Origin: Candidatus Woesearchaeota archaeon
GTDB lineage: Archaea > Nanobdellota > Nanobdellia > Woesearchaeales > UBA11576
Assembly (NCBI GenBank): GCA_016208715.1
Contig: JACQXV010000195.1
Span: 1 to 57,604 of the forward strand
Direction of reading: 5' to 3'
DNA: 57,604 nt
The position numbers and the translations under genes are program-made. The notes below the pieces were generated by a model, which was not told the DNA's origin, searched no databases, and worked only from the letters and a program-made list of their open reading frames with translations. This document shows, piece by piece, positions 2,891-55,645 of this stretch. Position 1 is the stretch's first letter; every line of letters begins with the position of its first letter.

Positions 2891-3175
2891 GTATTTGTTT
2901 AGCTCACTTTGTGCGTTCACACTTTTCACGACCAGCACCGCGAGAGCCACGCTGCGCGTGTCTTCGCTCAACCAATGCCGCGTGAAGCTCAGGGCGCGAT
3001 GCTGGTTGCCGAATCGTGCCACCCCGTAAGGGGCGCGATGCTGGTTGCCGAATCGTGCCACCCCGTAAGGGACAACCCCCGTCACGAAGTGATACAGAAA
3101 TATTCATGCCCTTCGCAAACTTCACGGCGGCATTGGTTGTGCTGGTCGTGCGACAGTATGTGGCTAAACAAATAC
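2891..3175. mobile_element. MITE-like element, B-type termini (GTATTTGTTTAGC...GCTAAACAAATAC), 285 bp
   Basis: 13-bp terminal inverted repeats. An exact 8-bp direct repeat AATAAAAT flanks it at 2883-2890 and 3176-3183. The interior folds back on itself (CACGACCAGCAC at about 2928 pairs with GTGCTGGTCGTG at about 3140). It has no coding capacity. Confidence 0.75.
2993..3070. repeat. Perfect tandem duplication, 2 x 39 bp (GGCGCGATGCTGGTTGCCGAATCGTGCCACCCCGTAAGG), inside the MITE
   Basis: Units at 2993-3031 and 3032-3070 are identical by direct reading. Confidence 0.9.
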
Positions 3176-15208: not shown

Positions 15209-16213
15209 ATGATCGAGAACAGACCAGAACACTCGCACGACGAGGAATCACGGGCTTCAGATCACACGATGTGGACTGAAAAGTATCGTACAAAGAATTT
15301 TTCAGAAGTTCTTGGGCAAGACGAAATTGTTAAGCGCGTAGAGGCGTTCGTAAAGCAGAGGAACATGCCACACGTGCTTTTTTCCGGTCCTGCGGGGGTC
15401 GGGAAGACGTCGCTCGCACTCGTGATCGCGCGCCGGTTGTTCGGTGATTCGTATCACATGAATTTCCTTTAGTTGAATGCGTCGGACGAGCGCGGAATTG
15501 ATGTTATCAGAAACAAAGTAAAGGATTTCGCTCGGACGCGCTCAATCGGGGATGTACCGTTTAAAATTATTTACCTTGATGAGTGCGATGCGCTCACCAG
15601 GGAAGCTCAGCAGGCATTGCGCAGGACGATGGAAAATTTTACGCAAACAACGCGCTTCATTCTCTCAGCAAATTATTCAAGCAAGATCATAGATCCCATA
15701 CAATCGCGGTGCGCGATCTTTCGCTTCAAGCCTCTTGCAAAGGAAGATATCTTCAGGCTGATTGACAACATTGTCGGTCAGGAGGGGGTTAGGATCGATC
15801 CGGGAGCAAAAGAAGCACTCTACGTCATCTCACAAGGCGACTGTCGCCGGGTTGAGAATATCTTACAGAGCGCCGCGTCGATGGAGAAGCACATCACTGA
15901 AGAGGAAGTTTTTTCCCTTGCATCGATGGCAAGGCCCAAGGAAGTTAAAGAGGTTTTGGAGTTTGCACTTAAGAACAAATTCGTGGACGCCAGAAACAAA
16001 CTTTTAAATATAATGCTTGACTATGGATTGTCAGGAATTGACGTCATTAAGCAAATTCAGTCGGAGATCATCTCGCTTGACATTTCAGGAAAGCAGCGGA
16101 TGATTCTGATGGAGAAGTGCGGCGAGGTCGAGTTTCGCATGAGTGAAGGAAGTGATGAGTTTTTGCAGTTGGAGTCATTCCTTGCGCACGTCGCATTAGT
16201 TGGTATGCAGTGA
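15209..16213 (+). CDS. rfcS: Replication factor C small subunit, interrupted by one in-frame TAG at 15470-15472
   Basis: Walker A GPAGVGKT, NASDERGID, DExD box YLDECDAL and SRC motif IQSRCAIFRF. Track ORFs 15209-15472 and 15473-16213 are in the same frame and are separated only by TAG, at the position where RFC-S consensus (NF.E.NASDERGI) has Glu. Confidence 0.85.
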
Positions 16214-16271
16214 CACTTCATGCGCGCGCGGGCTTGCGCGCCACAAGAGCACGGAGCAAAAAAGCGGTGAC

Positions 16272-17357
16272 ATGGCAAATCCTCTGACCCTCGACGAACT
16301 GGAAAAGAAAAGTCAGGAGATGCTCACACTCCAGCACGATCTTACGAATCGGCTTTCTCAAAGTCAACAAATTATTGCGGATTTCTCACTCGAGCTAGAA
16401 CGTCTCAAAGAGCAGATTACAACAAAGGAAGGCGCCGAGCGTTTGTTGCCGGGGTATCTTGGCACGCTGCAGTCAGCACTGCTCGAAAAACAGGAATTGA
16501 TAAAGAACTTGATTGATGATGTCACAACATTACGAAGCGTCATAGACAAGAAGGACGAGCACCTGCGCGAGTTAAAACAAAAGCTTACGGAAAAGATAGC
16601 CATAGCGACTGAAAACGAAGCAACAGCCGTTACTCTGAAGCAGGAACTTCTCGAAGCGAGTAAAGAGATTATACGGTTGAAGAACGACGTCGCCATCTTT
16701 GGTTCAAAGTTTAGCGAAGGTGATGCACAAAATAAAAAGCTTGCAGCGGATTTGCTACAAACAAAAGACGAGCTGCAGCATACGGCCACCGAACTTAAGG
16801 CTGTACAGGCCGCCCTTGCTGAACAGCAACAGAACATGAAAAACACAATAAAGAATCTTGTAGACGAGCACGAGACTGTAACGAAGAGGATCATGAATGA
16901 AAGTGTCCAGCGCAATTTGGTGCTTGCAACAGAAGTGAGGCGGTTGCGCAACATGGTGGACGCACAGCGCAGGACTATTGAGCTCAAAGAGAAAAAGGAG
17001 ACGGAGCTTGCGCAGGAGACGGTAAGCAGAGTGAAAGACCTGCTCGCCGTCAAAGAAAGTGCTTCGCAGACAAGTGAAGATTTATCCGGAAGCGTTTCGC
17101 CCGCGTTATCTCGGTTAGAATATACGCAGGAAGCGTACGTTGAGGAGGAGGAAGATCTTCTTGAAAGCTTGCGGACGCTCGTTGGAAGCGATCAGTATGA
17201 ACAGAGTGCCACTATTCCGCAGTTGAGCGACTTGTGCCCAATGATCGAGACCGCATTTGATCATGGAGATACGAAAGATGAGATCATTCGGTCGCTGCGT
17301 GGTTGTGGATATGCGCGTTCAGACATCGAAGCGGCATTCAGGAAGCTTGGAAGATAA
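16272..17357 (+). CDS. Coiled-coil protein (361 aa), function unknown
   Basis: Start taken at ATG MANPLTLDELEKK. Heptad-rich, E/K/Q/L-rich sequence through most of its length, with an acidic linker and a small C-terminal globular domain. Confidence 0.55.
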   Translation: MANPLTLDELEKKSQEMLTLQHDLTNRLSQSQQIIADFSLELERLKEQITTKEGAERLLPGYLGTLQSALLEKQELIKNLIDDVTTLRSVIDKKDEHLRELKQKLTEKIAIATENEATAVTLKQELLEASKEIIRLKNDVAIFGSKFSEGDAQNKKLAADLLQTKDELQHTATELKAVQAALAEQQQNMKNTIKNLVDEHETVTKRIMNESVQRNLVLATEVRRLRNMVDAQRRTIELKEKKETELAQETVSRVKDLLAVKESASQTSEDLSGSVSPALSRLEYTQEAYVEEEEDLLESLRTLVGSDQYEQSATIPQLSDLCPMIETAFDHGDTKDEIIRSLRGCGYARSDIEAAFRKLGR

Positions 17358-17383: not shown

Positions 17384-17535
17384 AACTCTGTCACGAATCT
17401 GCCGCTGCCACCCTGCGGGCTGGCGGCAGGCACATCGTCTCACAGGACTCTCGGTTCATGTTTAACTACTTTAATCAGTTTGACGTGCGCAACGAGCGTC
17501 GTGGCGACGCTGCAATTTAGGCGGCTAAAACAAAT
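17384..17535. mobile_element. Chimeric MITE-like element: A-type-like left arm, B-type right arm
   Basis: The left arm CTCTGTCACGAATCTGCCGCTGCCACCCTGCG resembles the A terminus. The right arm GAGCGTCGTGGCGACGCTGC...GGCTAAAACAAAT resembles the B terminus. No flanking direct repeat. Confidence 0.6.
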
Positions 17536-17552
17536 GCAGAAAAAGTAAAAAA

Positions 17553-18533
17553 TTATCCACCAACGTGCTGCACCACAAGCGGCTTGTTTACGAACTGCTT
17601 GTAATCATATCCAAGTTCGATCGTGACGAGTTTTTCAAGGTCGGTTGGGTTGTTGACTGTTTGCGTACAGCGGATTTCTCTTTCTCCATTGAGAAGTGTT
17701 GCATCCCCTTCAAAGGTTGTTCCGCTTGCTGCCCCGTTCTGGAGCCCACTGCAGGTTAAGCCATCAGAAAGTCCCGTGTCAACTTTGATGTGGACCTTGT
17801 CTTTTTTCTGGAAGCTTCCATCACACTCGCTTAATTTCTCGTGGACAGTTCCCGTTCCGACGGATTTCACCTTAAAAACAAATGCAACTTTGTTTGAGGA
17901 GCTGACAGATTCTCGAAATGACTGGCTCTCGATCTGGACAGGCGCTCCTGAATTGTCAATAGTTTTGACTTCGTTGATCTGACAAAGCGTATTTGTTTTA
18001 CCTTCTGTTCCAAGAATATCTTCCAGGATGCACAGTTTGGTGTTTGTTATGCTTTTGTATTCATAGCAGACGTCTGCGCGCACATTGTAGCTTACGGATC
18101 CAGCGATCGTCTTTTGATGCTGCATGGTGCTTCCAGCAGCCGGAAAGTCGATTGTTACGTCGGCTCCAGAGACAGCATTGCCGCTTGCGTCCTTTTGCGC
18201 CCCGCGCAATGGGTCTGGGCTGTCGTGCTTAAGGTCTGCAGCAGTGACTCCAAAATCCGCTGGGTCGATGCCACTGATCGTGACTGTTGCGTCAGCAGTA
18301 TTCTCAATGCTGTAGTCTCCTTTGTTCACGAGGCGTACGCTGATGCCGAACGGCTGACCTGTATCGAAGACCTTGTCGGGTGGAGTTCCTGCGACGAAGC
18401 TGAGCTCGAGTCCTTGGGTTCCTCCGACAAATTGTGATCCTGCGACTCCTTGCTGTTTTTGTCCCCCATTGCATCCTGCGAGGACGATAAGAAGGACAGT
18501 TAGGGCGACGATGGGGATGATTTTTTTGTTCAT
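17553..18533 (-). CDS. Secreted lipobox protein, paralog 1 of 3 (326 aa)
   Basis: N-terminus MNKKIIPIVALTVLLIVLAGC (signal plus lipobox-like LAGC). Shares blocks with 18663 and 19803: GT.G.....F....PP...F; a C.(Y/K)Y(K/Q).......(L/V)CI pair of cysteines; and a G.(A/P)V motif. Confidence 0.65.
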   Translation of the reverse strand: MNKKIIPIVALTVLLIVLAGCNGGQKQQGVAGSQFVGGTQGLELSFVAGTPPDKVFDTGQPFGISVRLVNKGDYSIENTADATVTISGIDPADFGVTAADLKHDSPDPLRGAQKDASGNAVSGADVTIDFPAAGSTMQHQKTIAGSVSYNVRADVCYEYKSITNTKLCILEDILGTEGKTNTLCQINEVKTIDNSGAPVQIESQSFRESVSSSNKVAFVFKVKSVGTGTVHEKLSECDGSFQKKDKVHIKVDTGLSDGLTCSGLQNGAASGTTFEGDATLLNGEREIRCTQTVNNPTDLEKLVTIELGYDYKQFVNKPLVVQHVGG

Positions 18534-18662
18534 GTCTTGTGCCTCCGAAATAGTGATCGTAACAGTGATCGTGATTCAGTTAACATGCGCTTCTCCTTCG
18601 TTTTTCTTCTCTTTCATTTTTCCCTTCTCATTTATTTTCCTGATTTATATTTTCCTGAGTTA

Positions 18663-19607
18663 TTAGGTTGTTTGCGTGTTTTGAATTTCTACCATTCTGC
18701 TGATGGAATTCTTGTAACCGTAGTCGAGTTTAATCGTGAGTGGAGTTTGGTATGCGGCGCCTGAGAGACCATCGAACTTGCAGAAGATTGTTGCTATATT
18801 GTTCGCAAGTCTGATTGGCGAGGGTGGTTGGCACGAGCCGACTTTTCCACCAGCAAGCGTAACTTGATAATTGATTTTGTTGAGTGCGGTGTAATCAAGT
18901 TGATTTGGGCATTGGCTGAGTGCTCCTATATCGTATGCAACACCCAACGGCTGGATATTTTGAAGATGGATTCGAAAGAACATCGCTGATGGGGTGGCTT
19001 CGGATTCGACATTCGTAACCGCGACAGGCGCTCCTTGACCACCGCCGGTCGCGTATGCCTTTTGTACTGTGCATGCTTTGTCAGAGAGCTTGTCCTGCGG
19101 CCGTGGATCAATGCACACGAGCGGGTTTGCATTGGTCTGGTAAGGGTAGCATGCAGTGACCAAGAAATTTGGTTTGTACGTGATCATTGATTGCGGTAAT
19201 TGGGTGGGGCTTGAGACGAATGAAGCCGTTTGGTATCCTCCCTCAGGATTGAACTGTGATTTTGCATCGATTTGTTGTGGGAAAAGGTACGTGTTTGTTA
19301 ACCCTTGGATGATCGCCGGGTCAAAGCCACTCAGGTAGAGTGCTGCTGCCGGGACGGTGAATGTTCCTCTGTTGCGAACTTCAACAAGAATACTGATGGG
19401 TGATCCTGTGAAGATGATGTTGGGTGGTTGCTCAGGAGCAAAAGTCATGACGATTCCTTCAGTGCCGGTTGCCGCGAATGCCGCAGTAATGGGCGGTTGG
19501 TTCTTTCCTCGTTGCTCAAAAGCACCGCACCCTGCAAGAAGGAAGAGCATAACAAGCGTAAGGGAAAAAAAAGTAGTTCGATTCAATAACTGATCCGATA
19601 ATGTCAT
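18663..19607 (-). CDS. Secreted lipobox protein, paralog 2 of 3 (314 aa)
   Basis: Start placed at the internal ATG (MTLSDQLLNRTTFFSLTLVMLFLLAGC). The upstream part of the track ORF runs into a repeat element. Same conserved blocks as paralogs 1 and 3 (ACYPYQTNANPLVCIDP, GGGQGAPVAV). Confidence 0.65.
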   Translation of the reverse strand: MTLSDQLLNRTTFFSLTLVMLFLLAGCGAFEQRGKNQPPITAAFAATGTEGIVMTFAPEQPPNIIFTGSPISILVEVRNRGTFTVPAAALYLSGFDPAIIQGLTNTYLFPQQIDAKSQFNPEGGYQTASFVSSPTQLPQSMITYKPNFLVTACYPYQTNANPLVCIDPRPQDKLSDKACTVQKAYATGGGQGAPVAVTNVESEATPSAMFFRIHLQNIQPLGVAYDIGALSQCPNQLDYTALNKINYQVTLAGGKVGSCQPPSPIRLANNIATIFCKFDGLSGAAYQTPLTIKLDYGYKNSISRMVEIQNTQTT

Positions 19608-19677
19608 AAGGAATCCTCTTTTCGTCAGCTCCTCGACGATTCTACAGCTTCCACCTTTTAAATACTTTTCGGTGAGT

Positions 19678-19792
19678 TGTACGTGGAAAGCTTCGTCGGT
19701 AAGCGAACTTCGCCACATATGTACGACCAGCACCGCTCAGACGCGCTGCGCGCATCTTCGCTCATTTTCCGCCACAGCCAGCTCGTGAGCGG
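19678..19792. repeat. D-type repeat copy 1 (115 bp), 4 mismatches to the copy at 57365-57479
   Basis: Direct comparison of the two copies. The segment ACGACCAGCACCGC..CGCTGCGCG..TCTTCGCTCA also matches the left inner arm of the 2891 MITE. Track ORFs 19677-19895 and 57358-57543 are translations of this repeat. Confidence 0.75.
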
Positions 19793-19802
19793 TTTCAGTG
19801 TA

Positions 19803-21035
19803 TTATGGACAACAGACGATGGTTGCTGCCCCTGGGCAAAGCCCTTTGACGCATCCGAGATTCTGCAAACACGCAATGTTCGCATCAGGGCATGACGTGC
19901 TGATGTCCTTGCAAGAGTAGTCAGTATATGCTTGAGAACACGCGTCAGCAGTTGCACCCGCTGTGCCGCTGACTCCCGTTGGGGTTGGTTTTCCGCAATC
20001 TACATTTTGTCCAGGCGGCGGCGAAACAAGAATTGATTTGAGCGCGCTCTGCGACACTCGGTACGATAAGCGCGCAGTGACGGGCGCCACAAACGCTCCT
20101 TTTACTTGCTCTGGTGGGAGTGTTTTGCTGCACTTCACAACGCTATCGCCGCTTGTATGCAGTTCAAGTTGTTTGGCATTGCACTGCATCGCTTGTCCCG
20201 AAAGAAATACTTCAATTTCAACATTATTGAGGCTATCGGCACTAAAGCAGCCGTTTGGTGATTGAGAACTATAGATAGAAACCTTGCTGTTGAGTTTCGC
20301 GATGCCAACGGTCACGTCAACATTGATGTCTTTTCCATAGGGGACGACGCCTACGTTAATGGTAGTGACTCCTACAGGTCCTCCTTGTCCACCAGAGAAC
20401 GTAACGGGTTTTGGCGTGCACTCGGGTTTTTCTGATGTGGTTCTGCTGCGAACAGGATCGATGCAGACGCTTGCATCTGCTTGTGTTTGGTACTTAAAGC
20501 ACGCGATTGCCTTGAAATTGCTCGTGTAGTTGATTTTTGCCGATGCTGCACTTCCTGTGTAGCCGGGAAAGCACTGGCTTTCGACTGGAAATGTGACGAT
20601 GTCCTCACCGCCTTGGCTAAGAAACTGCGATCGTCCGGGAATCGTGAATGTTTGCGTTGGCGGGCTTGTCTGGAATTTCCATGCGGTTTGCTCAAAGCCG
20701 GCGAGCGTGACGGTCCCTTCGCTGATGTCGTACGCTCCCACGTTCTTGATGAGGAACGCAACGTTAAATTTGTCTTTGACGAAGACTGCGGGGGGCGGGC
20801 TGTTCTCCAAAAACTCGATCGATACAGCATCTGTTCCTCTACGAAAGTTTTCAAGAGTGAGCGATCTGGTGTCTTGTTTTTTGAAGGAGCTCTGAATGTA
20901 TCCGCATCCACCAATGCCAATAAGTAGAACTATAACGAAAATAAAATACAATTTGTTTCTTGCGCGCCTGTTTCTTGCACGCCTGCTTTTTGTGCGCAGA
21001 GGATACATTTGGTGTGTTGGGTTTATTTGATTCAT
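19803..21035 (-). CDS. Secreted lipobox protein, paralog 3 of 3 (410 aa), with Cys-rich C-terminal tail
   Basis: Basic N-terminus followed by LLIGIGGCG. Conserved blocks ACFKYQTQADASVCIDP and SGGQGGPVGV. The last roughly 70 aa contain 9 Cys. Confidence 0.65.
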   Translation of the reverse strand: MNQINPTHQMYPLRTKSRRARNRRARNKLYFIFVIVLLIGIGGCGYIQSSFKKQDTRSLTLENFRRGTDAVSIEFLENSPPPAVFVKDKFNVAFLIKNVGAYDISEGTVTLAGFEQTAWKFQTSPPTQTFTIPGRSQFLSQGGEDIVTFPVESQCFPGYTGSAASAKINYTSNFKAIACFKYQTQADASVCIDPVRSRTTSEKPECTPKPVTFSGGQGGPVGVTTINVGVVPYGKDINVDVTVGIAKLNSKVSIYSSQSPNGCFSADSLNNVEIEVFLSGQAMQCNAKQLELHTSGDSVVKCSKTLPPEQVKGAFVAPVTARLSYRVSQSALKSILVSPPPGQNVDCGKPTPTGVSGTAGATADACSQAYTDYSCKDISTSCPDANIACLQNLGCVKGLCPGAATIVCCP

Positions 21036-21077
21036 GACAGATTACATCGAATAGTTTTATCTCTTGTTCTAATTATT

Positions 21078-23342
21078 CTAAGCTGTAGATGGTGCCGGAG
21101 TCGTAGTTGAAGAGGCATTGCTTGCATTGTTTGATGTAACAGCAGCAGCTTTCACCGGCACCTTCTTCTTTTCGCACCGCGTTCCATTCGGATACAATAC
21201 TTCTAAATCATTCCGTTCCTGGATCACGTAGGAGTAAATTACGCTTGCGGTGAACGTTGCTGGCGTCGGTTCGTTCTCAACTATGAATGCTGCTGAGCTT
21301 TGATCGAGTGTGATATGGCAGGAGGGAAACACTTTTTGAAGCGATTTATCGACGCCGGCGAGTGATTCCTGGATTGTTTGTAAGTACTGCGGGCTTAATG
21401 AGAGCGTTTGTCCGCTCTGGATCCACGAAGGACACAATGATTGGCCGCTCACAGATTCTCCTGAACTGACGCGGAAGCCTTCGGGTATCGTGACACTGAC
21501 AGTGTCGATCTTTTTGATCCAGCCATCGATAGTGTTCTCAACCCCCACTTTAAGTTTGAGGTTCGTGTTTTCGTCAATGCCGATGAGCGGAAGTTTTTCA
21601 GTCAGCAAGAGGAGTTTGACTGGCCCTTTGTCTGAAATTGAGATGCTGCTGCTGAGTTCTGGCCAGATGCTGCGGATCGCAGAGTTAACCGCGCCTTCGT
21701 CGTCAAGGCTGATCTGTTTTTCTTTTGCGTATGCTTCAAGTCGGTCTCGCAGGACTTTCTTCTGGATGAAGTTATTTTGCAGGAATGCGTCTGTGCGCAT
21801 CGAATCGACTTGTGTTGAGTAGGTAATGCGGTAATTGCCGCAGGCCGTTATCTTTGGATAGCACGTGACGTCTTCGGTGAAGCTGAGCTGGTCCTTGACT
21901 TGTTCGGGTGTGATAATCTGCTGCACCCCGGGGTCACGGTCAATCTTGGTTTCTCCAGCGGTGGTGGTTACGGAAAATAGTTCGCGGTCCTTGAGTGAAC
22001 AAGTAGTTGATGCGGTCATGGAATGCTTGTTGCCAAACCCGTGGAGTCGTGTTGAGAACTCGGCAGGCTCTCCTTGGAGTATTTTTTTGGGATTTGGAAG
22101 AAGCGGCGGTTTATACTGGATGCCGACAAATTCCTTGGTAGTTTTATCCACGTCGCCTTGGATGTATTCTCCTGTTGCGATCTGTGTGTTGCGTTGCCAG
22201 CTGCGTTTGAATTCTTGTGCGATTCCTGCAAATCCTTCCTTGCCTTTTTCAACTGAAACGATGGCACTTTGTTTTGCTTCTCCTGATTGATAGGCGGCCA
22301 ATGCTTTGGGCATTGCATACGTCATGCCATACCCGAATGCAACGATGAAAAGCATGATGGTGACTATATTGATGCCGCCCTTCATTGCTCTTTTAAACGT
22401 GAAAGCGCCACGGCTCATTGCACGTGATGCAATCCATCCTTTGCCTGAGCCTGCTCTGATAGTCATCTTCCCGCCGGCCGCTTGTGCGGGTTGAGCCTCT
22501 GCAATTCCTTGAAGTTTGTTTTCGCGTTCTTTAACGTTGGCGAGTTCTTTTTCGGTATTGTCCAATTCTTCTTTGAGCGAGTCGAGCTGTTCTGTAAGAG
22601 GTTTGAGTTGGGAATCTTCAACCTCCTTGATTTCCTGCTTCTGGATTTTTCGTGTTTTGTAGATTGCAAACATATACCAAGGGAGAATGTCTAGCCCTGG
22701 AACCATATCGAGAAATGCGAGTCCCTTCTGGTAGTCCTTTCCCATTATAATTGGAAAGATGAACAGATTGATGCTCAGGTCAATCGCCGCTTCAATGACT
22801 GCTCCAACAACACTCGCAGTTATTGCTTCTTCAATGCCCGTGGCCCAACCGATGACGCCCCATGCGTCAATGCCCAACGCGAACAAGTAGCCAATGATGA
22901 CGCGTATAAAAGAGATTTTATTTTGATTGATTTCATCTTGTTTCTTACTGACTTCATCTTTCTTCGCATCGAAGTGCTTTTCAAGTTGCTCTTTTCTCCC
23001 TGTTTCTCCTGTTTCTTTGTCACCTTCGAGGCTTCGTCGCTGGTCCTCAAGTGTTTGCAATTCCCACTCGATCTGCTGCTGGCTCAGCTCTTCTGGTTCA
23101 GGCGGCTTTCCTTTTTCACGCGTCGCTGCTTGCTGTTGTTGCACTGGCTGCTGTTGAGGAAATCCTTGTGGGTATCGCGGCGGCGCCTGGAGCGGTGGAG
23201 CTTGTGCCCCTCCAATTTGGCCAGAACCCATTTGACCAGCAATGAGTTGATCTACGTACTCCGCGCTTGGTTGTTGAGGAGGTTTGGGTGATTGCGCTTT
23301 TGCCGGCATACGAAGTGATGCTCTCGCTTTCTTGCTGCGCAT
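21078..23342 (-). CDS. Large membrane protein (754 aa): P/Q-rich N-terminus, coiled coils, multi-pass TM block, large extracytoplasmic C-terminal domain
   Basis: Hydrophobic segments IRVIIGYLFALGIDAWGVIGW, VVGAVIEAAIDLSINLFIFPII, LDILPWYMFAIY and INIVTIMLFIVAFGYGMTYAM, flanked by heptad-rich E/K/Q stretches. S/T-rich C-terminus. Confidence 0.6.
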   Translation of the reverse strand: MRSKKARASLRMPAKAQSPKPPQQPSAEYVDQLIAGQMGSGQIGGAQAPPLQAPPRYPQGFPQQQPVQQQQAATREKGKPPEPEELSQQQIEWELQTLEDQRRSLEGDKETGETGRKEQLEKHFDAKKDEVSKKQDEINQNKISFIRVIIGYLFALGIDAWGVIGWATGIEEAITASVVGAVIEAAIDLSINLFIFPIIMGKDYQKGLAFLDMVPGLDILPWYMFAIYKTRKIQKQEIKEVEDSQLKPLTEQLDSLKEELDNTEKELANVKERENKLQGIAEAQPAQAAGGKMTIRAGSGKGWIASRAMSRGAFTFKRAMKGGINIVTIMLFIVAFGYGMTYAMPKALAAYQSGEAKQSAIVSVEKGKEGFAGIAQEFKRSWQRNTQIATGEYIQGDVDKTTKEFVGIQYKPPLLPNPKKILQGEPAEFSTRLHGFGNKHSMTASTTCSLKDRELFSVTTTAGETKIDRDPGVQQIITPEQVKDQLSFTEDVTCYPKITACGNYRITYSTQVDSMRTDAFLQNNFIQKKVLRDRLEAYAKEKQISLDDEGAVNSAIRSIWPELSSSISISDKGPVKLLLLTEKLPLIGIDENTNLKLKVGVENTIDGWIKKIDTVSVTIPEGFRVSSGESVSGQSLCPSWIQSGQTLSLSPQYLQTIQESLAGVDKSLQKVFPSCHITLDQSSAAFIVENEPTPATFTASVIYSYVIQERNDLEVLYPNGTRCEKKKVPVKAAAVTSNNASNASSTTTPAPSTA

Positions 23343-23484
23343 GAAGCTCTTCAGAGAATTCAGAGAATCACGCGGGTGAAAAAGAAGCTCCTGTGGTGTT
23401 TGTTGAGAAATCTCCCTGCACCTCTTTTGTTACAAACAAGAGTCGACTCCGCCGCCTATTCAAATCCATAAATGTGAAATAAAA

Positions 23485-23624
23485 GTATTTGTTTAGCAGC
23501 GTCGCCACCGACCTGCGAGCTAACGGCTTTCACATCGTCTCGCACGACTCTCGGTTCGGTAAGCGGCTTAACTTACACAGCGAGCGTCGTGGCGACGCTG
23601 CGATGTGAGTAGCTAAACAAATAC
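23485..23624. mobile_element. MITE-like element, B-type, short form (140 bp)
   Basis: TIRs GTATTTGTTTAGC and GCTAAACAAATAC. 13-bp perfect inner stem GCAGCGTCGCCAC/GTGGCGACGCTGC. It differs from the 43835 copy by 2 substitutions and 1 indel. No clear TSD. The right TIR overlaps the last 4 codons of gene 23613-24812. Confidence 0.8.
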
Positions 23625-24812
23625 GAGCCAGTCGGTGATATCTCTCTTATAGTCTGCTTCTTTTTGGTAGATGTTGGTCTCATGCCCGTTGAAGTTGATC
23701 TTGCCTGTCTTGAGTTCTTTGCTATCGAGGAACTTGAGTCGCAGTTCTACGCTGTAGCGTCCTGCTTTGAGGTCATTGATGGTGTTTTGGGTGATGTCGA
23801 AGTAAAACACGGGTTGCGTGATTTGTTTCATCTCTGATGTAATCTTAGTTAGATCCACAAGGTAGTTTCCTTTTTCGGTTCGGAAGATGATGAGGTTTTC
23901 TCCCTCGCGCAGAATATCCGGCGTGAATTCAATCGTGACCTTACCGCCGCAATCAGGCAGTGTTGAGTAGACGGAGTGGCCATTGATTGTGATATCAAGT
24001 TTTCCTACTTTTGTGACTTCACAGTCAGGAGCGAAGCGTAGAACACTGCGTTGCACGTTGTTCTTCTCGGTCGCGCTCACGATGAAGCTGTTCTGGCTTC
24101 GTTGTTGAGTAACGTCAGTAACATCTGCGGAAATTTGGACTGTTTGCAGACCGAATTCGTGCACGCGCCAGAAAAGCCACCCGACTCTGCTTGATTCAAA
24201 TTCGAGCGTATTCTTACCTTGCAGCAGACTTGACTTAGCAAGACGGAGCGGTTCGACGTTTTCTTGCGTGATCGGTCCATTGAATATCTCATTTCCGTTA
24301 AGTCGGATTACCAAACGTCCTTTGCTTCGGGTCGTTGCGCGAAATGTAAGAAGGACGTTGTCCGTATTTTCAAAGTCGCTGATTGCGAACGTCACGTTTG
24401 CGCGCTCTTGCCGCATGAATGTCGTTCGAACATAGAGGTTACTTCGCGTCTCAAGGATTTTGGCATTTTCCTTTGCAAAGAGATAGACTGCTCCGATGTT
24501 ATGCTCTATGTCTTTAGTGTCAAGGGGTGAGAGGGTTCCGGGTGTTGCTAAGAGCAGTGTATCGTTTGCACCGCCAGTCCCTGGTCCGGTCGTGGTGGTT
24601 TGATTTCCTTCCAGGATCTGGTCACGAAATTCAGGTGGAATGAAAAGGAGATAGAAGATAATGAGCAGTGCAAGGAGCGCTACAAGCGTTGCTGCAGCGT
24701 TTGCATCGGCTTGAGCTTTGGTGCATCGGCCCCGCTGAGAAAAATACGTTGAATAATGCGTTGAATAAGAGGCATTGTATGAATACATTGGAGACCGAAC
24801 CGACCGAACCAT
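23613..24812 (-). CDS. Membrane-anchored beta-rich protein (399 aa), function unknown; first gene of surface cluster 1
   Basis: Single N-terminal hydrophobic segment ATLVALLALLIIFYLLFIPP, then a T/G-rich linker and a beta-rich domain. The final codons VFV and the TAG stop lie inside the MITE terminal repeat. Confidence 0.6.
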   Translation of the reverse strand: MVRSVRSPMYSYNASYSTHYSTYFSQRGRCTKAQADANAAATLVALLALLIIFYLLFIPPEFRDQILEGNQTTTTGPGTGGANDTLLLATPGTLSPLDTKDIEHNIGAVYLFAKENAKILETRSNLYVRTTFMRQERANVTFAISDFENTDNVLLTFRATTRSKGRLVIRLNGNEIFNGPITQENVEPLRLAKSSLLQGKNTLEFESSRVGWLFWRVHEFGLQTVQISADVTDVTQQRSQNSFIVSATEKNNVQRSVLRFAPDCEVTKVGKLDITINGHSVYSTLPDCGGKVTIEFTPDILREGENLIIFRTEKGNYLVDLTKITSEMKQITQPVFYFDITQNTINDLKAGRYSVELRLKFLDSKELKTGKINFNGHETNIYQKEADYKRDITDWLVFV

Positions 24813-28717: not shown

Positions 28718-30754
28718 ATGGCCGCAGTTGATGCTCTCGATGATCTTGGAACCTATACCGGTCCTGATGGCGTCATTATCAACGCGCTTGAAACAGCTCT
28801 CCCCTCTGGATTCAAACCGTACTGGCTGATAGTGATTCTGGAGGCCCTTCTTATTTTTGATATCGTGCGCAAAATCAAAGATAAGCAGGGAATAAAAAGC
28901 GTCATTGGACAGATCGCGTTCGGTGTCCTGCTCTTGACTTTTGTTCTTCCGATTTCTCCTGTGTTAATTCTCACAGGTTTGTTCCTGTTCGTTTCCATCT
29001 TGCTGGTGTGGAACTTTCACCGCATGCAGCTTGGGGGCATGCTAGGAAGTCTCTTGTTTTTATGGTTGTGCTCGTACTTGTTATTCTCAAATGCGATTGC
29101 TGGAGTGCTCGCGGGAGTTGGTGCAGCAGGCATTGGTTGGTGGCTTCGTCGGCTGATCAAGAGGGCGGAGTTTGGCACACGCGCAGAGCGAATTGCTGCT
29201 GCAGAGATGGGCTTTCCCATTGCAGCAGACATTAAGGCAATCAAAACTGAAGAGAAGATTGAACGGATGGGAAAACGCGGAGAGCATGGAGAATTGGGAG
29301 CGCTTGGTGCGGTGACCGAAGAAGCCGCAAAGCTCGAAGAACGCACTATTGAAGCGACACTCCACGTTGAAGCAATTGCTGCGGGAGAAGCAGAGATCGG
29401 CAAGACGCTTGAACAGCTGCGCAACGCTGAGCTGACAACTCAGCAGCGAAATACGCGAATCGAAGAAATGATTCGCAATCTTGATTCTCAACTCAAGAAC
29501 ATCAACAAAAGTAATGATATAGATGCTGCTGCAGCGAAATATCTTGAAAAATTCATGACAGGCATCATTAAGCTGATGGGGGAGCTTATTAATGATGAAA
29601 AATATGAGGAGCATTATCGCAAGCGCGCACTTGAGGTGTTTCGTTCAACGGTGAAGATGCTTAAAGATGCAGCCAGTGAAGCTTATAGGATATCCCGTAT
29701 AGAGCTGGTGGATGAATCGGGCTTGAAGTCTGCAGCAAAGGCAAGCATCAAGAAGCTTGAGAGCAAGTTGAATGAAACAGAACACAAATTGGAGAAGGCG
29801 TTTGAAAGGTATGCTGCGGTCAAGGATCCCGAAACGAAGAAGAAACTCAAAGAAGGAATGAACAACATTGCAAAAGAGCGGGACTTCCTGAAGCAAGAAT
29901 ATGCAAAACTTGTGCAAATTGAGAATTATTTGCAGGTTGTTCTTGGAAAGCACAACAGCGTGTTGAAAAAATTACGAGCAGATGCATCGCGGTTGACAGA
30001 CCTCGGGAAGAATCTTTCTGGTGCAGACGAACGGATGGAGAAATATGATAAGAGCATCCAGGAGAGCATTGCAAAAATGAAGAATGCATACACCGCATTT
30101 GAGCAGGCCGTTGGCGTGATCGAGAGGGGCGAGATTCCTGAAGAGCTTGCGATCGTGATCTCGACGAATACTGGGAACATTTTTGGTGAACTGGCCGCTG
30201 TACTGGCGCGATCAAAGGAGTTTACTGAGAAAGAGTTGGCACCATTTATGGAACAGAATCGCTTCATGATCCAGGACGCGTACAAGATCCAGGAATCAGA
30301 AGAATTCTGTAACATCGCATCGATGCGCCTCAATGACGCAGTGAGAGCGCTGGGCCAGCTGGCTCTCGATGTGGTGAAAGGAGCGGGAGGTGTGGACTCT
30401 AATAAAATTCAGAAGGAATTGCTGATGGATATAGAGGCCGAGAAATGGGAAGAAAGCATCTCCCGCTTTGCTGCAAAGAAAGGCATCAAGACAAAGAACG
30501 TGTTTCAGCAGGCCGAAAATCAGTTAGTGGTTGGCCAGCAATCCGCGCGCGAATTATTGGAGACATTGAATAATGAGATTGTCCAGACAGAAGACACAAA
30601 GAAGTTGACGCTGGATGCGCTTGTTGGCGCAACGGATACGTTGCTCAAAAATCGTGTGCGTATTAATAAGGACTTCCAAGCAAAGGCGGATGAGGTCATG
30701 TCAGATCTGAAAAAGGAAAAAGTTGCTGAGGCACGAGCAAAGGCATATGCCTAA
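28718..30754 (+). CDS. Membrane-anchored long alpha-helical / coiled-coil protein (678 aa), function unknown
   Basis: About 4-5 N-terminal TM segments (residues 30-150), followed by about 500 aa of E/K/A/L-rich helical sequence. Confidence 0.6.
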   Translation: MAAVDALDDLGTYTGPDGVIINALETALPSGFKPYWLIVILEALLIFDIVRKIKDKQGIKSVIGQIAFGVLLLTFVLPISPVLILTGLFLFVSILLVWNFHRMQLGGMLGSLLFLWLCSYLLFSNAIAGVLAGVGAAGIGWWLRRLIKRAEFGTRAERIAAAEMGFPIAADIKAIKTEEKIERMGKRGEHGELGALGAVTEEAAKLEERTIEATLHVEAIAAGEAEIGKTLEQLRNAELTTQQRNTRIEEMIRNLDSQLKNINKSNDIDAAAAKYLEKFMTGIIKLMGELINDEKYEEHYRKRALEVFRSTVKMLKDAASEAYRISRIELVDESGLKSAAKASIKKLESKLNETEHKLEKAFERYAAVKDPETKKKLKEGMNNIAKERDFLKQEYAKLVQIENYLQVVLGKHNSVLKKLRADASRLTDLGKNLSGADERMEKYDKSIQESIAKMKNAYTAFEQAVGVIERGEIPEELAIVISTNTGNIFGELAAVLARSKEFTEKELAPFMEQNRFMIQDAYKIQESEEFCNIASMRLNDAVRALGQLALDVVKGAGGVDSNKIQKELLMDIEAEKWEESISRFAAKKGIKTKNVFQQAENQLVVGQQSARELLETLNNEIVQTEDTKKLTLDALVGATDTLLKNRVRINKDFQAKADEVMSDLKKEKVAEARAKAYA

Positions 30755-43834: not shown

Positions 43835-43975
43835 GTATTTGTTTAGGCAGCGTCGCCACCGACCTGCGAGCTAACGGCTTTCACATCGCCTCGCACGATT
43901 CTCGGTTCGGTAAGCGGCTTAACTTACACAGCGAGCGTCGTGGCGACGCTGCGATGTGAGTAGCTAAACAAATAC
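43835..43975. mobile_element. MITE-like element, B-type, short form (141 bp), near-twin of the 23485 copy
   Basis: Exact TIRs. An exact 8-bp TSD GAATAAAT sits at 43827-43834 and 43976-43983. The element lies 33 nt upstream of the MCM ATG. Confidence 0.88.
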
Positions 43976-46453: not shown

Positions 46454-49400
46454 ATGGAAAAAGGAGGAATCTGCAGCGTCTGCCTGTTTCTCATATATCT
46501 TCTTATTTCACTCCCGCTGATCGCCTCCGTTGTTTCTGCAGACTCGTTTTCTGTCAACATTCATGGTGTTGATGAGGTTGCGGGTTTTCGAAAAAGTAAT
46601 GACGTTACAATCATTAATGCATCCGTGAATATTGCGGGAGATGTTCTCATAGATAGTTCTCAAGTAAAGTTAGTTACAGATCCTACTCGCGCATTTAGTT
46701 GTATTCCTCTGCCCGACAGCTCCGCCTCGTGCTTCATGACTATTCCGCAAATTCTTGCTGGCGGCGTCTATCCCTTTCAGTTTCAGGCGTTCCATGATGA
46801 TTTAACGCCTTCTTCTGCTGTTGCAAGCGCGCAAGTTGTTGTTGATGATTCCCCTGCAAAGCCTGTTGGTCTTGAGATTTCGTTGAAAGGAACAACAGTG
46901 AATGTTACAGTTGGCGCTCTTGATCAAGCGTGCGCCACGTGCCCCCCGACAGCGTGTTCCGGTATTGAAAAAATTGCTTATTTGTCAAATAACGCACAGC
47001 TCAAAGAACAGTCGCTCAAGACAAGTCAGTGTGTTGTTGGAGCGAGCTCGACAATGTTCAATATATCTGTTGGGAAAACGACTGAAAATCGCACGCTTTG
47101 TGTTGAGGTTTACGATCGTCTTGATCAAAAGAGCTCTGAATGTAAAATTGTGACGATCGATGGTTCGCCCCCGTCGCTTGTGAACATGTCGGTGTGGAAG
47201 GGCGAGTCGCTTCTCTCTTTCAGTAGCGGGAAGCCGGAGACTGTCAAGATAAGGGCAATTATCAAGGACGACAGCGGGATTGATGCCAACAGTATGGTTG
47301 CTGATTTTTCAATCATCAATCAGATTCCACAATTCAACCAGCAGTATAAAGCAATTGATAACTCGACACAATACAAAAATATCTATGAAGGTTGCAAGCC
47401 AACGGCAAAGAAGGGGCTCGTTGAGTGCGTGTGGAATAATCTCGTCATGGTCCTCCCTGCCGAAATAGAGCCGCAGGTGCGCCTTGCGTTCAATGACTTG
47501 AATGGGAATCTTCCTGCAGCTATCTACACGTTGCCGGTGAAATTTGACAACGCTGCGCCCAAAGTGCTCAAGATTCGTAGTCAGAGTGTTGATAATGCTG
47601 GAAAGAATTGGGTGGGCAGATACAATAATACGATCACAGCCGATATTGAGGAGACCGGTTCTGGTCTTACCAAGCGCGGGATTGTTCTTGATGTTGCCGG
47701 CTTTGGCTCTCAGCTGACAAACATTGGTCAAGTAACAACCTTGTTTCCAAATAATTGTTCGGTTGGCTGGTCCTGTGTGTGGAATGGTGTGAATGTTACA
47801 TCATCAAAACCAAAGAATGGTGACGTGCTCACAGTCACTATTGTGTATCCTTCGCAGGATGACGCAGGAAATGCCGTTGAAGGAAATACGATCAGCGCGA
47901 TGTACTTGGATCTTGCAGCGCCTTCAATCGTCAATATTACCGGCTCGCAAGTTTGCCCTGTCGCTGGTGAGGATATCAAACTGATAGTAAACGTGAGCGA
48001 GAAAGAGTCGGGTGATGTCAAAGCGACTGTTTCTGCATCTGCGTTGAGTTTAGATCATTTCCCCAGAGAGTTTGAATGCGAAAAGACAAGCGAGGATGGC
48101 AAATGGCTTTGTGAGATCGCGATTGGAAATTTGCCGACGTATTATGCTAAGGATTTCGTAAACATCACTATCTCTGATCTTGCAGGAAACAAGAACTCGA
48201 CAGTATTTCCTCAGGAAGTGTGTGAGTCTGCGCCGGGCATTCCTCCAAACGTAGTTGGTGTATCAAAAGTTGATATCTTTCCGCGAAACGGCGTTGATAA
48301 AATGGTTGCTGAACGGATATCCTTCCCGCTCTTCTTTCAACCGTTCTTTACAACCGCAGGCACTGTTACAAAGATCCAGAAGGTTTCAGTTGTAGGCTGT
48401 GAAATCACCGGGGGCACTGTGAATGACCCGTATGTTGTGACTGAATTTTTGGTTGATAAGCCGCTCATAAGCACGAAGGTCCTCTTCATGCCGGAGGCAT
48501 TCAAGAATGCAAGTGGTGCGGGCGCCCTTGGCGATAAAGCGAAGATGAACTGCAGCACGCGTTTGATTGTTCGTTCAGGAACAAAAGTCTTCAAGGAGCC
48601 GGAAATCGAGAACGTGATGTTTGATGTGCCGTTGCATGGGACGCTGTTTGGTGAGATTACGAAAACAGTGAAGGCCAAGATCGATGCAAAGCAGAGGGAG
48701 ATTGATGCTACGCAAGAAAGCATTGACAGCTTGCAAAAGTGGGTTAATATTCTTGGAACGATGTGCACTGTGGCAGAGATTTTGGCGAAGCTCGTCGCCG
48801 CGCTCGATCTCTTGTATGTGGTTATTTGGGGCGTTTCTTGGGCACTTGAATTGACTGGAATACTTGCTGGCGTCGGCCAAGGATTGTATCATGGAGCGTG
48901 CCAGTTCATGTCCTATGTCACAGGATACGGTGTGCCTACCTTCTGGCAGACAAATATGGCACTGAACCTGCCTAATTCTCTTGAGTCACCTGCCGCGTCG
49001 TCGCCGGGGTTTTGGCTTAAATTAATATGTGCATTTGTGTCGTGCCGTTTGCTTGAAACATCAAACGCGTTTGAACTTATTGCAAACACCGGTTCTGCTG
49101 ATGGGGGCGATTATGCTGAATTTGTTGCAAATGATAAAGCAACAACTCCTGGAAGACCGAACAGGATTGATGTATCAAAAGACAAACCCACAGGAAAGAC
49201 CGGGGATGTCACAGAATCGGTGATTGGATTTTCTGGTCCGGACCTGCTTTCTCCGTACAGAAGCTTGCCTGTCGCGACACGATTGTTCTGCTCGCCAGGC
49301 GAACTCTACGGGCTTAAGAAGGAACGACAAGTGAAATGTATGACGCGCAATTGTTACCGGGACTTTGTAACCGCTGGTTTTTCACCTGCGATTTGCGATC

Positions 49401-49789
49401 GGATGGAGGAGTTACGGACCTGCTTATACGTTGATGGTGCAGCATACAGGATTGTTGGTGACGCGGGGGTTGTCATGCGTTATATGACAGGCATTCTGGA
49501 ATATTGGCTTACGCAGTTCCTTGCTACGTTGGGATCGGTATTTCTTGCAAAATTTACTCGGTGTCCCTGGCCATTGGGTCTCGCACAATCGGGCGAAATA
49601 TCCGCAAAAATACAAATGCCCTACATGTGTACAAGCCCTACGGTGAGCTCCGGCTGGGTTTCTGCCTACTGCAGCGGTGCTATGGCAGGATTATTGTACC
49701 TTGATGTTGGAGATTGGCTTGGAGGAAGCGACTTTAAGTGGAATTACTACAATAAAAAATTAGAAGATCCTGATTATTGTGTACTGTAA
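46454..49789 (+). CDS. Giant secreted/membrane protein (1111 aa): signal peptide, repeated beta (Ig-like) modules, coiled-coil segment, TM helices, Cys-rich C-terminal domain
   Basis: N-terminus MEKGGICSVCLFLIYLLISLPLIASVVSA. About 700 aa of beta-rich repeats. KIDAKQREIDATQESIDSLQKW is followed by hydrophobic helices (ILGTMCTVAEILAKLVAALDLLYVVIWGVSWALELTGILAGV). The last roughly 300 aa contain many Cys. Confidence 0.7.
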   Translation: MEKGGICSVCLFLIYLLISLPLIASVVSADSFSVNIHGVDEVAGFRKSNDVTIINASVNIAGDVLIDSSQVKLVTDPTRAFSCIPLPDSSASCFMTIPQILAGGVYPFQFQAFHDDLTPSSAVASAQVVVDDSPAKPVGLEISLKGTTVNVTVGALDQACATCPPTACSGIEKIAYLSNNAQLKEQSLKTSQCVVGASSTMFNISVGKTTENRTLCVEVYDRLDQKSSECKIVTIDGSPPSLVNMSVWKGESLLSFSSGKPETVKIRAIIKDDSGIDANSMVADFSIINQIPQFNQQYKAIDNSTQYKNIYEGCKPTAKKGLVECVWNNLVMVLPAEIEPQVRLAFNDLNGNLPAAIYTLPVKFDNAAPKVLKIRSQSVDNAGKNWVGRYNNTITADIEETGSGLTKRGIVLDVAGFGSQLTNIGQVTTLFPNNCSVGWSCVWNGVNVTSSKPKNGDVLTVTIVYPSQDDAGNAVEGNTISAMYLDLAAPSIVNITGSQVCPVAGEDIKLIVNVSEKESGDVKATVSASALSLDHFPREFECEKTSEDGKWLCEIAIGNLPTYYAKDFVNITISDLAGNKNSTVFPQEVCESAPGIPPNVVGVSKVDIFPRNGVDKMVAERISFPLFFQPFFTTAGTVTKIQKVSVVGCEITGGTVNDPYVVTEFLVDKPLISTKVLFMPEAFKNASGAGALGDKAKMNCSTRLIVRSGTKVFKEPEIENVMFDVPLHGTLFGEITKTVKAKIDAKQREIDATQESIDSLQKWVNILGTMCTVAEILAKLVAALDLLYVVIWGVSWALELTGILAGVGQGLYHGACQFMSYVTGYGVPTFWQTNMALNLPNSLESPAASSPGFWLKLICAFVSCRLLETSNAFELIANTGSADGGDYAEFVANDKATTPGRPNRIDVSKDKPTGKTGDVTESVIGFSGPDLLSPYRSLPVATRLFCSPGELYGLKKERQVKCMTRNCYRDFVTAGFSPAICDRMEELRTCLYVDGAAYRIVGDAGVVMRYMTGILEYWLTQFLATLGSVFLAKFTRCPWPLGLAQSGEISAKIQMPYMCTSPTVSSGWVSAYCSGAMAGLLYLDVGDWLGGSDFKWNYYNKKLEDPDYCVL

Positions 49790-55352: not shown

Positions 55353-55645
55353 GTATTTGTTTAGCAGCGTCGCCACCGACCCGCGAGCGAATGCGGTGGT
55401 TTGATGTAGGTGCGACTTGCTTGTCGGTGCATTGAGCGTGTTGGGCTTTTTCATGATCATTCCTGCGACTCATGACATCCCCGAAGGGGATCCCTGTCAT
55501 TCGTCGACGCGAGGCAGGATTCCCAAAGGGATGCCGAGCGTCGCAGGAAGGATTATTCACAAAAAGCACGACTGCACCACGCAAATCACAACGGAAGATG
55601 GCGAGCGTCGTGGCGACGCTGCGATGTGAGTAGCTAAACAAATAC
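55353..55645. mobile_element. MITE-like element, B-type termini, 293 bp with a distinct interior
   Basis: About 40 nt at each end match the short-form copies at all but one position. An exact 8-bp TSD AAATTAAG sits at 55345-55352 and 55646-55653. The roughly 200-bp interior is unrelated to the other copies and contains several hairpins. Confidence 0.85.

Follow-up and report, generated by a model that had tools for sequence, protein, structure and literature searches.

We analysed a cluster of five genes, which we call G1 to G5, on a 57,604-nt stretch of DNA from a Candidatus Woesearchaeota archaeon (contig JACQXV010000195.1 of assembly GCA_016208715.1). We refer to this whole stretch as the window; coordinates of its features are collected in Table 1. 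An initial annotation, made from the letters of the DNA alone, had described five co-oriented minus-strand genes for secreted or membrane proteins, three of them paralogous lipobox proteins, as a candidate for a new cell-envelope apparatus in an archaeal episymbiont. All five open reading frames (ORFs) are present where it placed them, and the organism is indeed an archaeon, of the DPANN group (Woesearchaeota). The proteins also look membrane-anchored. By hydropathy, G1, G3, G4 and G5 each have a single N-terminal hydrophobic segment, and G2 has three such segments within residues 143-228 and a fourth at 319-344. G4 could also start at a GTG codon, which would give 356 instead of 314 amino acids, but we favour the shorter form, because its orthologues have 310-312 amino acids and because a TATA-like sequence (TATTTAAAA) lies within the GTG extension. 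The spacers between consecutive genes are short, as described (270, 42, 195 and 129 bp), and two of them contain repeats: a MITE-like element (MITE, miniature inverted-repeat transposable element) between G1 and G2, and a 15-bp duplication between G4 and G5. The window carries one copy of each family.

None of the five proteins matches a described family, as the initial annotation suspected. Scans against Pfam and NCBIfam gave no match at E ≤ 1, and scans against PHROGs and PADLOC gave no matches. When each protein on its own, and the profiles A1, A5 and A6, were searched against PDB sequences, the only matches were compositional ones to transmembrane (TM) segments. Ten longer members of the paralogue family were also scanned and had no Pfam domain. 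Nevertheless, these families are large. An exhaustive search of 1.84 billion cluster representatives with the paralogue profile gave 3411 matches at E ≤ 1e-3 and 1760 at E ≤ 1e-30. G1 has at least 70 relatives (30-83% identity). A word-indexed search, which badly under-reports family size, found 17 relatives of the paralogues and, with 4 hits for G2, just three close relatives of that protein; only the figure for the paralogues was corrected by the exhaustive search. The relatives of the paralogues and of G1 are all hypothetical proteins of Woesearchaeota or Nanoarchaeota, those of the paralogues from metagenome-assembled genomes (MAGs). Our literature searches turned up no earlier account of either the five-gene module or its three core families. 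We conclude that the module is an undescribed system, though one made up of common folds and with a function that we only infer. The three families, which are sizeable (thousands of members) and missing from all the curated libraries, deserve names in the domain databases.

The five genes stay together in related genomes. We scanned one genome per GTDB species, which identified 155 species with a relative of G1, and kept 80 loci. All ORFs of these loci were scored with profiles of the three families, and for counts of synteny we considered the 57 loci with at least 6 kb of sequence downstream of G1. Almost all of these (56/57) had a paralogue or more on the same strand downstream of G1, with at least two at 54 loci and exactly three at 47. 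A match to the G2 ectodomain lay between G1 and the paralogues at 47 of the 57 loci, and the other ten had an ORF of 385-1319 amino acids in that position. Similarly, on each of six contigs that we fetched via individual proteins, a single strand carried G1, followed by a G2-type protein and by two or three paralogues, and in 5 of the 6, Pelota was directly upstream of G1. In relatives, neighbouring genes of the module abut or share a few bases, and in many the overlap is 4 bp, as in an operon. The flanks are often shared as well: a divergent Pelota gene lies less than 600 bp from G1 at 58 of 71 related loci, and the RFC gene lies at most 10 kb downstream at 45 of 52. The five-gene module is contiguous and co-oriented even where the flanks differ, as at locus L004. 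Overall, this is very strong co-conservation of gene order, and we view the module as a lineage-specific, core-genome set of cell-surface genes of Woesearchaeota-type DPANN archaea.

Two side observations concern these loci. L004 (Nanoarchaeota contig JAUYMN010000019; 237-1115, minus strand) has only two paralogues and different flanks, and its module is two genes away from a gene for a prepilin peptidase (Peptidase_A24), which was not seen at the other loci we inspected. Also, several records titled "uncultured Methanosarcinales archaeon" (L009, L010, L013, L017, L020 and others), which are third-party-assembled MAGs, carry the module in its Pelota/RFC neighbourhood. These organism names are probably wrong.

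The three lipobox proteins, G3 to G5, are paralogous (BLASTP E values of 3e-23, 4e-13 and 6e-8). Their alignment shows the shared blocks that had been noted, namely the lipobox (IGGC, LAGC and LAGC), GT(D/E/Q)..F..PP..F, a Cys-pair block and GGQG(A/G)PV, except that G5 has NSGAPV where GGQG was expected. We took as a lipobox the pattern [LVI][ASTVI][GAS]C, with a conserved Cys, directly after a hydrophobic signal peptide at the N-terminus. A strict lipobox follows the hydrophobic stretch in 161 of 182 family members, nearly all the others have xFGC or xYGC, and the family alignment shows almost no variation at the Cys. By these sequence features, G3 to G5 belong to the class of lipobox-anchored lipoproteins and are predicted to be lipidated. 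Lipoproteins are predicted to be prevalent in DPANN archaea, and the lipidation enzyme AliA is predicted there too (PMC12462473).

The initial annotation took the three lipoproteins for a tandem amplification. This part does not hold up. For 50 loci with exactly three paralogues, we asked in which position each protein's best match in every other genome lay. For proteins in position 1, the best match shared their position in 70% of comparisons; for position 2 the figure was 94.5%, and for position 3 it was 98.2%. Since best matches keep their gene position, the triplication must predate the radiation of the group, with each copy retained since. In other words, G3, G4 and G5 are ancient, position-specific orthogroups, which is the pattern of distinct and non-redundant subunits, not of amplification for dosage or variation.

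An AlphaFold2 model of G4 from an 18-sequence alignment (mean pLDDT 85.5, pTM 0.78) is all-beta, with a signal helix, a linker and two immunoglobulin (Ig)-like beta-sandwich domains. When this model was compared with the PDB by Foldseek, it matched only generic tandem Ig-like sandwiches at a TM-score of about 0.2. These included the calf and thigh domains of integrin alpha, complement MG domains and transglutaminase barrels; a WxL-interacting protein was at rank 43. Matches in BFVD were also only generic. G4 and G5 each have six conserved Cys besides the anchor Cys. In the products of G1 to G5, even numbers of Cys are found only in the predicted outer parts, and this confinement of even counts or pairs to the outside (in G1, G2, G4 and G5) fits disulfide-bonded extracellular domains.

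G3 has two beta-sandwich domains, a linker and a C-terminal tail of about 45 residues with 9 Cys, spaced as C-x8-C-x6-C-x6-C-x5-C-x4-C-x7-CC-P and ending in GLCPG...CCP. This tail recurs on the first paralogue at L003, L008, L017 and L018, and on G2 at L003. Searched alone, it had no match in Pfam or the PDB. Its spacing and terminal CC are loosely reminiscent of defensins or knottins. The N-terminus of G3 also contains a 15-bp tandem duplication (93% identical, in perfect register) that doubles the residues RRARN, in the positively charged region ahead of the signal peptide.

In G2, the part that is conserved across the family is the ectodomain, and only the ectodomain. It is homologous to the proteins in the same position at L005 (phmmer, 2e-89) and L006 (5e-12), and via L006 to that at L007 (2e-25), and it contains all six Cys of G2. 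The coiled coils that led the initial annotation to propose a coiled-coil scaffold are present in the window's G2, but the coiled-coil and P/Q-rich part is lineage-specific. Conservation is concentrated in the ectodomain, and no conserved polar residues, which might have been a sign of an enzyme or a channel, were evident in the TM block. The G2 ectodomain is distantly related to the lipoproteins. An hhalign comparison with the paralogue family, using alignments of about 60 and 182 sequences, gave a probability of 82% (E = 1.1e-5, 164 columns), while shallow alignments gave 34%. The aligned region has a Cys-containing strand, a G-P-V motif, an N-x-G strand and a terminal Y-x-Y strand. The module therefore comprises four members of one fold family (one anchored by polytopic TM segments and three by lipid) and an unrelated jelly-roll protein.

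What follows the G2 ectodomain is variable, and in some relatives it is a murein hydrolase. Among 68 proteins in the G2 position, Pfam identified SLT in 6, Peptidase_M23 in 4, Glucosaminidase in 2 and NlpC/P60 in 1. Allowing for overlaps, 10-12 of the 68 bear a hydrolase (about 15%); examples are in Table 1. One further protein has an fn3-like tail, and another has a weak PKD-like match. Wherever they were mapped, the added domains are C-terminal to the ectodomain. At L049, SLT is instead at the C-terminus of the first paralogue. As the same modules (the Cys-rich tail and SLT) occur on both proteins, G2 and the first paralogue seem to offer their C-termini as equivalent sites at which such modules are displayed and exchanged. 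Independent fusion of four unrelated murein-hydrolase families after the same ectodomain points to contact with bacterial walls, and recurrent fusions of peptidoglycan hydrolases to the C-terminus of G2 or G3 fit a role in attachment or contact. Large extracellular SLT-domain proteins of Woesearchaeota and Pacearchaeota have been proposed to bind bacterial walls (Castelle et al. 2021, PMC8204110).

G1 was described as N-anchored and beta-rich, and its AlphaFold2 model (70-sequence alignment, pLDDT 86.3) agrees: a signal-anchor helix, a disordered linker and three tandem jelly-rolls (galactose-binding-like beta-sandwiches). The internal repeat is also seen if the profile is compared with itself (hhalign, 97.7%, E = 1e-12), and the ectodomain has an invariant Cys pair, C264/C288. 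The nearest folds by Foldseek were the C-terminal sandwiches of GH35 galactosidases, PNGase F and BcsB, at a TM-score of about 0.2. We considered G1 as a relative of the paralogues or of G2 and rejected this, as hhalign found it to be unrelated to either. The window's G1 ends in ...DITDWLVFV, but its orthologues (the 91%-identical protein at L008 and about 69 others) continue for about 24 residues (...LGSNAVKVTPDEQMEVLKLEVIKKR). These residues were lost because the terminal repeat of the MITE-like element supplies the last codons and the stop; the missing coding sequence was not found downstream in any frame. Some G1 orthologues are longer (567-609 instead of about 400 amino acids: L042, L045, L050, L066, L069, L071, L079-L081 and L085). 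Their extra 170-200 residues or so, which have no Pfam match, may be one or two more jelly-roll repeats.

Starting from the anchors, folds, paralogy, conserved gene order, position-specific orthology and hydrolase fusions described above, our preferred interpretation is that the five proteins form a heteromeric complex at the cell surface, on the outside of the cytoplasmic membrane, which displays modules towards the walls of partner cells. We would put its chance of being correct at slightly below even; its physical assembly, its orientation, its binding of glycans (or other ligands) and its role in host contact are what we infer. In such a complex, G2 would be the membrane-embedded core, with an ectodomain of the same fold family as the three lipoproteins. 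G3, G4 and G5, each anchored via its lipobox Cys and each with two disulfide-stabilised Ig-like sandwiches, would be non-equivalent subunits packed together with the ectodomain of G2. G1 would be a binding arm, a signal-anchored chain of three jelly-rolls of a carbohydrate-binding type. In G2 and in the first paralogue, the free C-terminus would point outwards and bear exchangeable modules, which would be a Cys-rich knot on G3 in the window's organism and peptidoglycan hydrolases in about 15% of its relatives. The complex might then hold the archaeon against the wall of its partner and work on that wall locally, and the partner would be bacterial in the lineages with hydrolases.

A more elaborate version, which we think is unlikely, is a host-contact organelle peculiar to Woesearchaeota. 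The G2 ectodomain and its three non-equivalent, lipid-anchored homologues would form a pseudo-symmetric ring around a conduit made by the TM segments of G2, with G1 as a glycan-binding grapple, and the distal modules (murein hydrolases or the Cys-rich knot) would breach or grip the wall of a bacterial partner. If it were true, this would be the first molecular apparatus to be described for an archaeon that lives on bacteria.

Several observations weigh against a partner-binding complex, or limit what it could do. The TM block of G2 shows little conservation, and this makes a conserved channel or enzyme there less likely. None of the window's five proteins has a murein-hydrolase domain in Pfam (SLT, M23, NlpC/P60 or glucosaminidase), and since the window's G2 does without one, lysis of walls cannot be the core function. 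Nor can the mechanism centre on the coiled-coil and P/Q-rich cytoplasmic part of G2, which is lineage-specific. Because the Foldseek matches of G4 and G1 are generic (TM-score about 0.2), we draw no specific functional homology from them, and carbohydrate binding by G1 is an analogy at the level of the fold only. The truncated G1 may be impaired in this genome. The longer spacers in the window (129-270 bp) contain TATA-like motifs and would permit separate transcription. Finally, we tried N-glycosylation sequons as a marker of surface exposure, and they are not enriched.

The module could instead be a structural layer or anchor of the envelope. In that case, the lipoproteins, along with the ectodomain of G2, would be the tiles or the support of a coat like an S-layer, G1 would be a stalk or spacer, and the hydrolases of some lineages would be opportunistic decorations on an abundant surface scaffold. 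In favour of this, archaeal S-layer proteins are typically made of Ig-like beta-sandwiches and can be lipid-anchored or two-component, all the products of the module are membrane-anchored all-beta proteins, and the module is universal, single-copy and core-genome within its lineage. But five different subunits, mostly small (300-400 amino acids), each anchored and in one copy, are unlike lattices of one or two proteins, and sequons, as mentioned, are not enriched. None of the S-layer families that we considered (S_layer_N/C, SlaA/SlaB, DUF1608, SLH and others) gave a Pfam or NCBIfam match at E ≤ 1 or a PDB sequence match, and no solved S-layer protein was in the top 50 PDB matches by Foldseek for the models of G4 and G1. 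In a metatranscriptome study of Woesearchaeota, separately annotated S-layer genes were among the top transcripts (PMC11606122). Overall, we consider an envelope layer somewhat unlikely. We view as quite unlikely a platform for capturing glycans or scavenging nutrients, like the SusE/F lipoproteins or the Csc/WxL systems, in which G1 and the lipoproteins would bind polysaccharides or pieces of murein, to be released by the optional hydrolases and taken up by transporters encoded elsewhere. In its favour, G1 has jelly-rolls that resemble accessory sandwiches found in glycosidases, in PNGase F and in BcsB, G3 to G5 are lipoproteins whose Ig-like domains come in tandem, relatives carry fusions to murein hydrolases, and the WxL-interacting protein is among the weak matches. 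Against this, the matches at the level of the fold are generic, an enzyme domain is absent altogether from most lineages, and at none of about 80 loci is the module linked to a transporter, a permease or a glycoside hydrolase. Similarly, no ATPase or channel family is linked to it, and the transport function that the initial annotation also suggested would be hypothetical.

It is also conceivable that these are five independent surface proteins that share neither a complex nor a function, and that they owe their joint inheritance solely to a gene neighbourhood that is frozen in these reduced genomes. The housekeeping genes on either side are syntenic too (the Pelota and RFC counts above), so gene order is generally stable, and the window's spacers could hold separate promoters. 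However, the five genes are together even where the flanks differ, many relatives have operon-like 4-bp overlaps, G2 and the paralogues share ancestry, and G2 has C-terminal modules in common with the first paralogue, between which they move. We regard independence as very doubtful. Finally, a viral or mobile origin, such as receptor-binding or tail-like proteins of a provirus, is suggested by tape-measure-like features of G2, namely its coiled coil and TM block and the lysin domains of relatives, given that phage tape-measure proteins often pair hydrophobic blocks with SLT or M23, and by the MITE-like copies that bracket G2 to G5. This is close to refuted: the module occupies the same chromosomal site between Pelota and RFC across dozens of species, it has no PHROGs matches and only generic matches in BFVD, there are no genes for an integrase, capsid or terminase, the MITE-like element is scattered through the whole window, and the GC content is unremarkable.

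Woesearchaeota are among the most widespread uncultured archaea, and with their reduced genomes, they are assumed to depend on partners. We know of no identified host for them and no attachment machinery. A module that is present in essentially every related genome we examined offers a concrete handle on how these cells meet their partners, and it is a good candidate for the apparatus by which such tiny archaea make contact with them. If the module is an envelope lattice instead, it would also fill a gap, as to our knowledge no Woesearchaeal S-layer has been characterised. Taken together, the initial annotation was right that these are extracytoplasmic, membrane-anchored proteins of undescribed families, and wrong about the tandem amplification; the coiled-coil scaffold that it proposed is not conserved across the G2 family.

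The window's MITE-like elements belong to an intergenic family of about 140-290 bp, with 13-bp terminal inverted repeats and variable interiors. We found 13 matches to the terminal repeats in the window, where 0.09 were expected. The 140-nt copy at the end of G1 folds into a long hairpin (z = -4.6). L008, the closest relative, has a related copy after its G1, with TTTTGTT on both sides. We did not identify a transposase for the family. The 15-bp duplication between G4 and G5 is 93% identical and in perfect register.

Around the cluster, the window's genes are housekeeping genes: Pelota (divergent from G1), acetate kinase, phosphotransacetylase, the RFC small subunit, a PRC-barrel protein, Tyr/Trp-tRNA synthetase, MCM, DNA ligase and PolX. 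The divergent region between G1 and Pelota is 104 bp and holds a TATA-like sequence; by inspection, a Shine-Dalgarno-like GGTGA is 8 nt ahead of the start of G1. tRNA and Rfam scans of the window found no RNA genes. The RFC gene has an in-frame TAG at the site of a conserved Glu (...NFL-E-LNASDERG...). TAG is one base away from GAG, and it could reflect an error of sequencing or assembly, a pseudogene or read-through. Two other proteins without Pfam matches contain coiled coils. One, of 678 amino acids, has an N-terminal block of 4-5 hydrophobic helices and then a long coiled coil, and it is syntenic in relatives (L003 1-1296, L005 4096-6099), on the far side of phosphotransacetylase, acetate kinase and Pelota. 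The other is a conserved protein of 385 amino acids between RFC and G5. Speculatively, either could be a cytoplasmic partner of the coiled-coil region of G2. Three large ORFs without Pfam matches, of 1111, 781 and 451 amino acids, are probably another lineage-specific cluster.

Table 1. Features of the window and examples of hydrolase domains in related G2 proteins (aa, amino acids; L numbers designate related loci)
Feature	Positions	Strand	Description
G1	23613-24812	minus	399 aa; from ORF list
G1 signal-anchor helix	about 24642-24704		residues 37-57
G1 jelly-roll domains	about 23640-24512		residues ~101-391
G2	21078-23342	minus	754 aa polytopic membrane protein; from ORF list and hydropathy
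G2 N-terminus		minus	residues 1-142; P/Q-rich and coiled-coil
G2 hydrophobic block	22659-22916	minus	residues 143-228; followed by coiled-coil loop
G2 last TM segment	22311-22388	minus	residues 319-344; followed by ectodomain
G2 conserved ectodomain	21162-22220	minus	residues ~375-727; from phmmer and conservation map
G3	19803-21035	minus	410 aa, first-position paralogue; signal peptide, IGGC lipobox
G3 9-Cys tail	19806-19943		residues ~365-410
G4	18663-19607	minus	314 aa from ATG (19607), second-position paralogue; signal peptide, LAGC lipobox
G4, alternative start	18663-19733		356 aa from GTG (19733)
G5	17553-18533	minus	326 aa, third-position paralogue; signal peptide, LAGC lipobox
T-rich run	about 17527-17552		directly after G5 stop codon
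TATA-like ATATATATTTAAA	24851-24863	minus	38-50 nt upstream of G1 ATG; from sequence inspection only
MITE-like element	23485-23624		140 bp; 13-bp terminal inverted repeats GTATTTGTTTAGC / GCTAAACAAATAC; overlaps 3' end of G1
MITE-like element, degenerate second copy	17403-17529		just downstream of G5; D1/D2, 76-78% identity to 23503-23617
Other MITE-like copies	2891-3175, 43835-43975, 55353-55645		intergenic
Single MITE-like ends	11786, 26130, 28600, 38724, 53809		
15-bp tandem duplication	18633-18662		G4-G5 spacer
15-bp tandem duplication	20954-20983		G3 N-terminus
RFC small subunit	15209-16213	plus	in-frame TAG at 15470-15472
385-aa coiled-coil protein	16200-17357	plus	
678-aa protein	28718-30754	plus	
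1111-aa ORF	46454-49789	plus	
781-aa ORF	51274-53619	plus	
451-aa ORF	53856-55211	minus	
G2 of L006			SLT at residues 612-666, M23 at 838-943 (Pfam)
G2 of L034			SLT (Pfam)
G2 of L045			SLT (Pfam)
G2 of L062			SLT (Pfam)
G2 of L042			M23 (Pfam)
G2 of L036			M23 (Pfam)
G2 of L020			M23 (Pfam)
G2 of L040			NlpC/P60 (Pfam)

We compared the module with known systems. Homology to ABC-binding-protein or pilus families, or to S-layer proteins, would have undercut the claim of an undescribed apparatus, and neither the sequence scans nor Foldseek found any. We rejected substrate-binding lipoproteins of ABC transporters because the G4 model is all-beta, where a two-lobed alpha/beta fold would be expected, no substrate-binding-protein family matched in Pfam, and no permease or ATPase is adjacent in the window or at the 80 or so related loci. 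Type IV pilins and archaellum components were rejected because G3 to G5 have lipobox signal peptides, where class III signal peptides would be expected, G1 has a TM helix, a linker and jelly-rolls, and the module includes no ATPase or platform gene. Structural proteins of phages or viruses were rejected given the PHROGs and BFVD results and the context of conserved housekeeping genes, and an anti-phage defence system was rejected for want of a PADLOC match.

Among systems with some likeness, the AliA/AliB-dependent lipoproteins of archaea (PMC12462473) share with G3 to G5 a signal peptide and [L/I][A/G]GC with a conserved Cys. The anchor, and no particular function, is what defines this class, and G3 to G5 belong to it at the sequence level. 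SlaA/SlaB of Sulfolobales and the lipid-anchored S-layer glycoprotein of Haloferax resemble the module in their Ig-like beta-sandwiches, their membrane or lipid anchors and their place in the core envelope. However, they have no sequence or fold match to it, and they are one or two large proteins instead of five small subunits with N-terminal lipobox anchors. The Csc/WxL clusters of Gram-positive bacteria also encode multiple co-oriented surface proteins with beta-sandwiches and mixed anchoring, and are thought to act jointly on extracellular polymers or in adhesion. The module has no WxL, DUF916 or LPXTG domains in Pfam, and the domain of life and the chemistry of anchoring differ, so this is an analogy only. 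The nearest published description is of the extracellular SLT-domain proteins from the same lineage, proposed to bind or degrade bacterial walls (Castelle et al. 2021, PMC8204110), and the G2 proteins of L006, L034, L045 and L062 carry such domains; fam00969 could not be mapped to sequences of the module. That work is about a family of domain-containing proteins and no module of five genes, and it coincides only with the optional tail that some G2 proteins have. In the module, the hydrolase is a C-terminal extra that most relatives lack, and the core is the ectodomain, the three lipoproteins and the jelly-roll protein.

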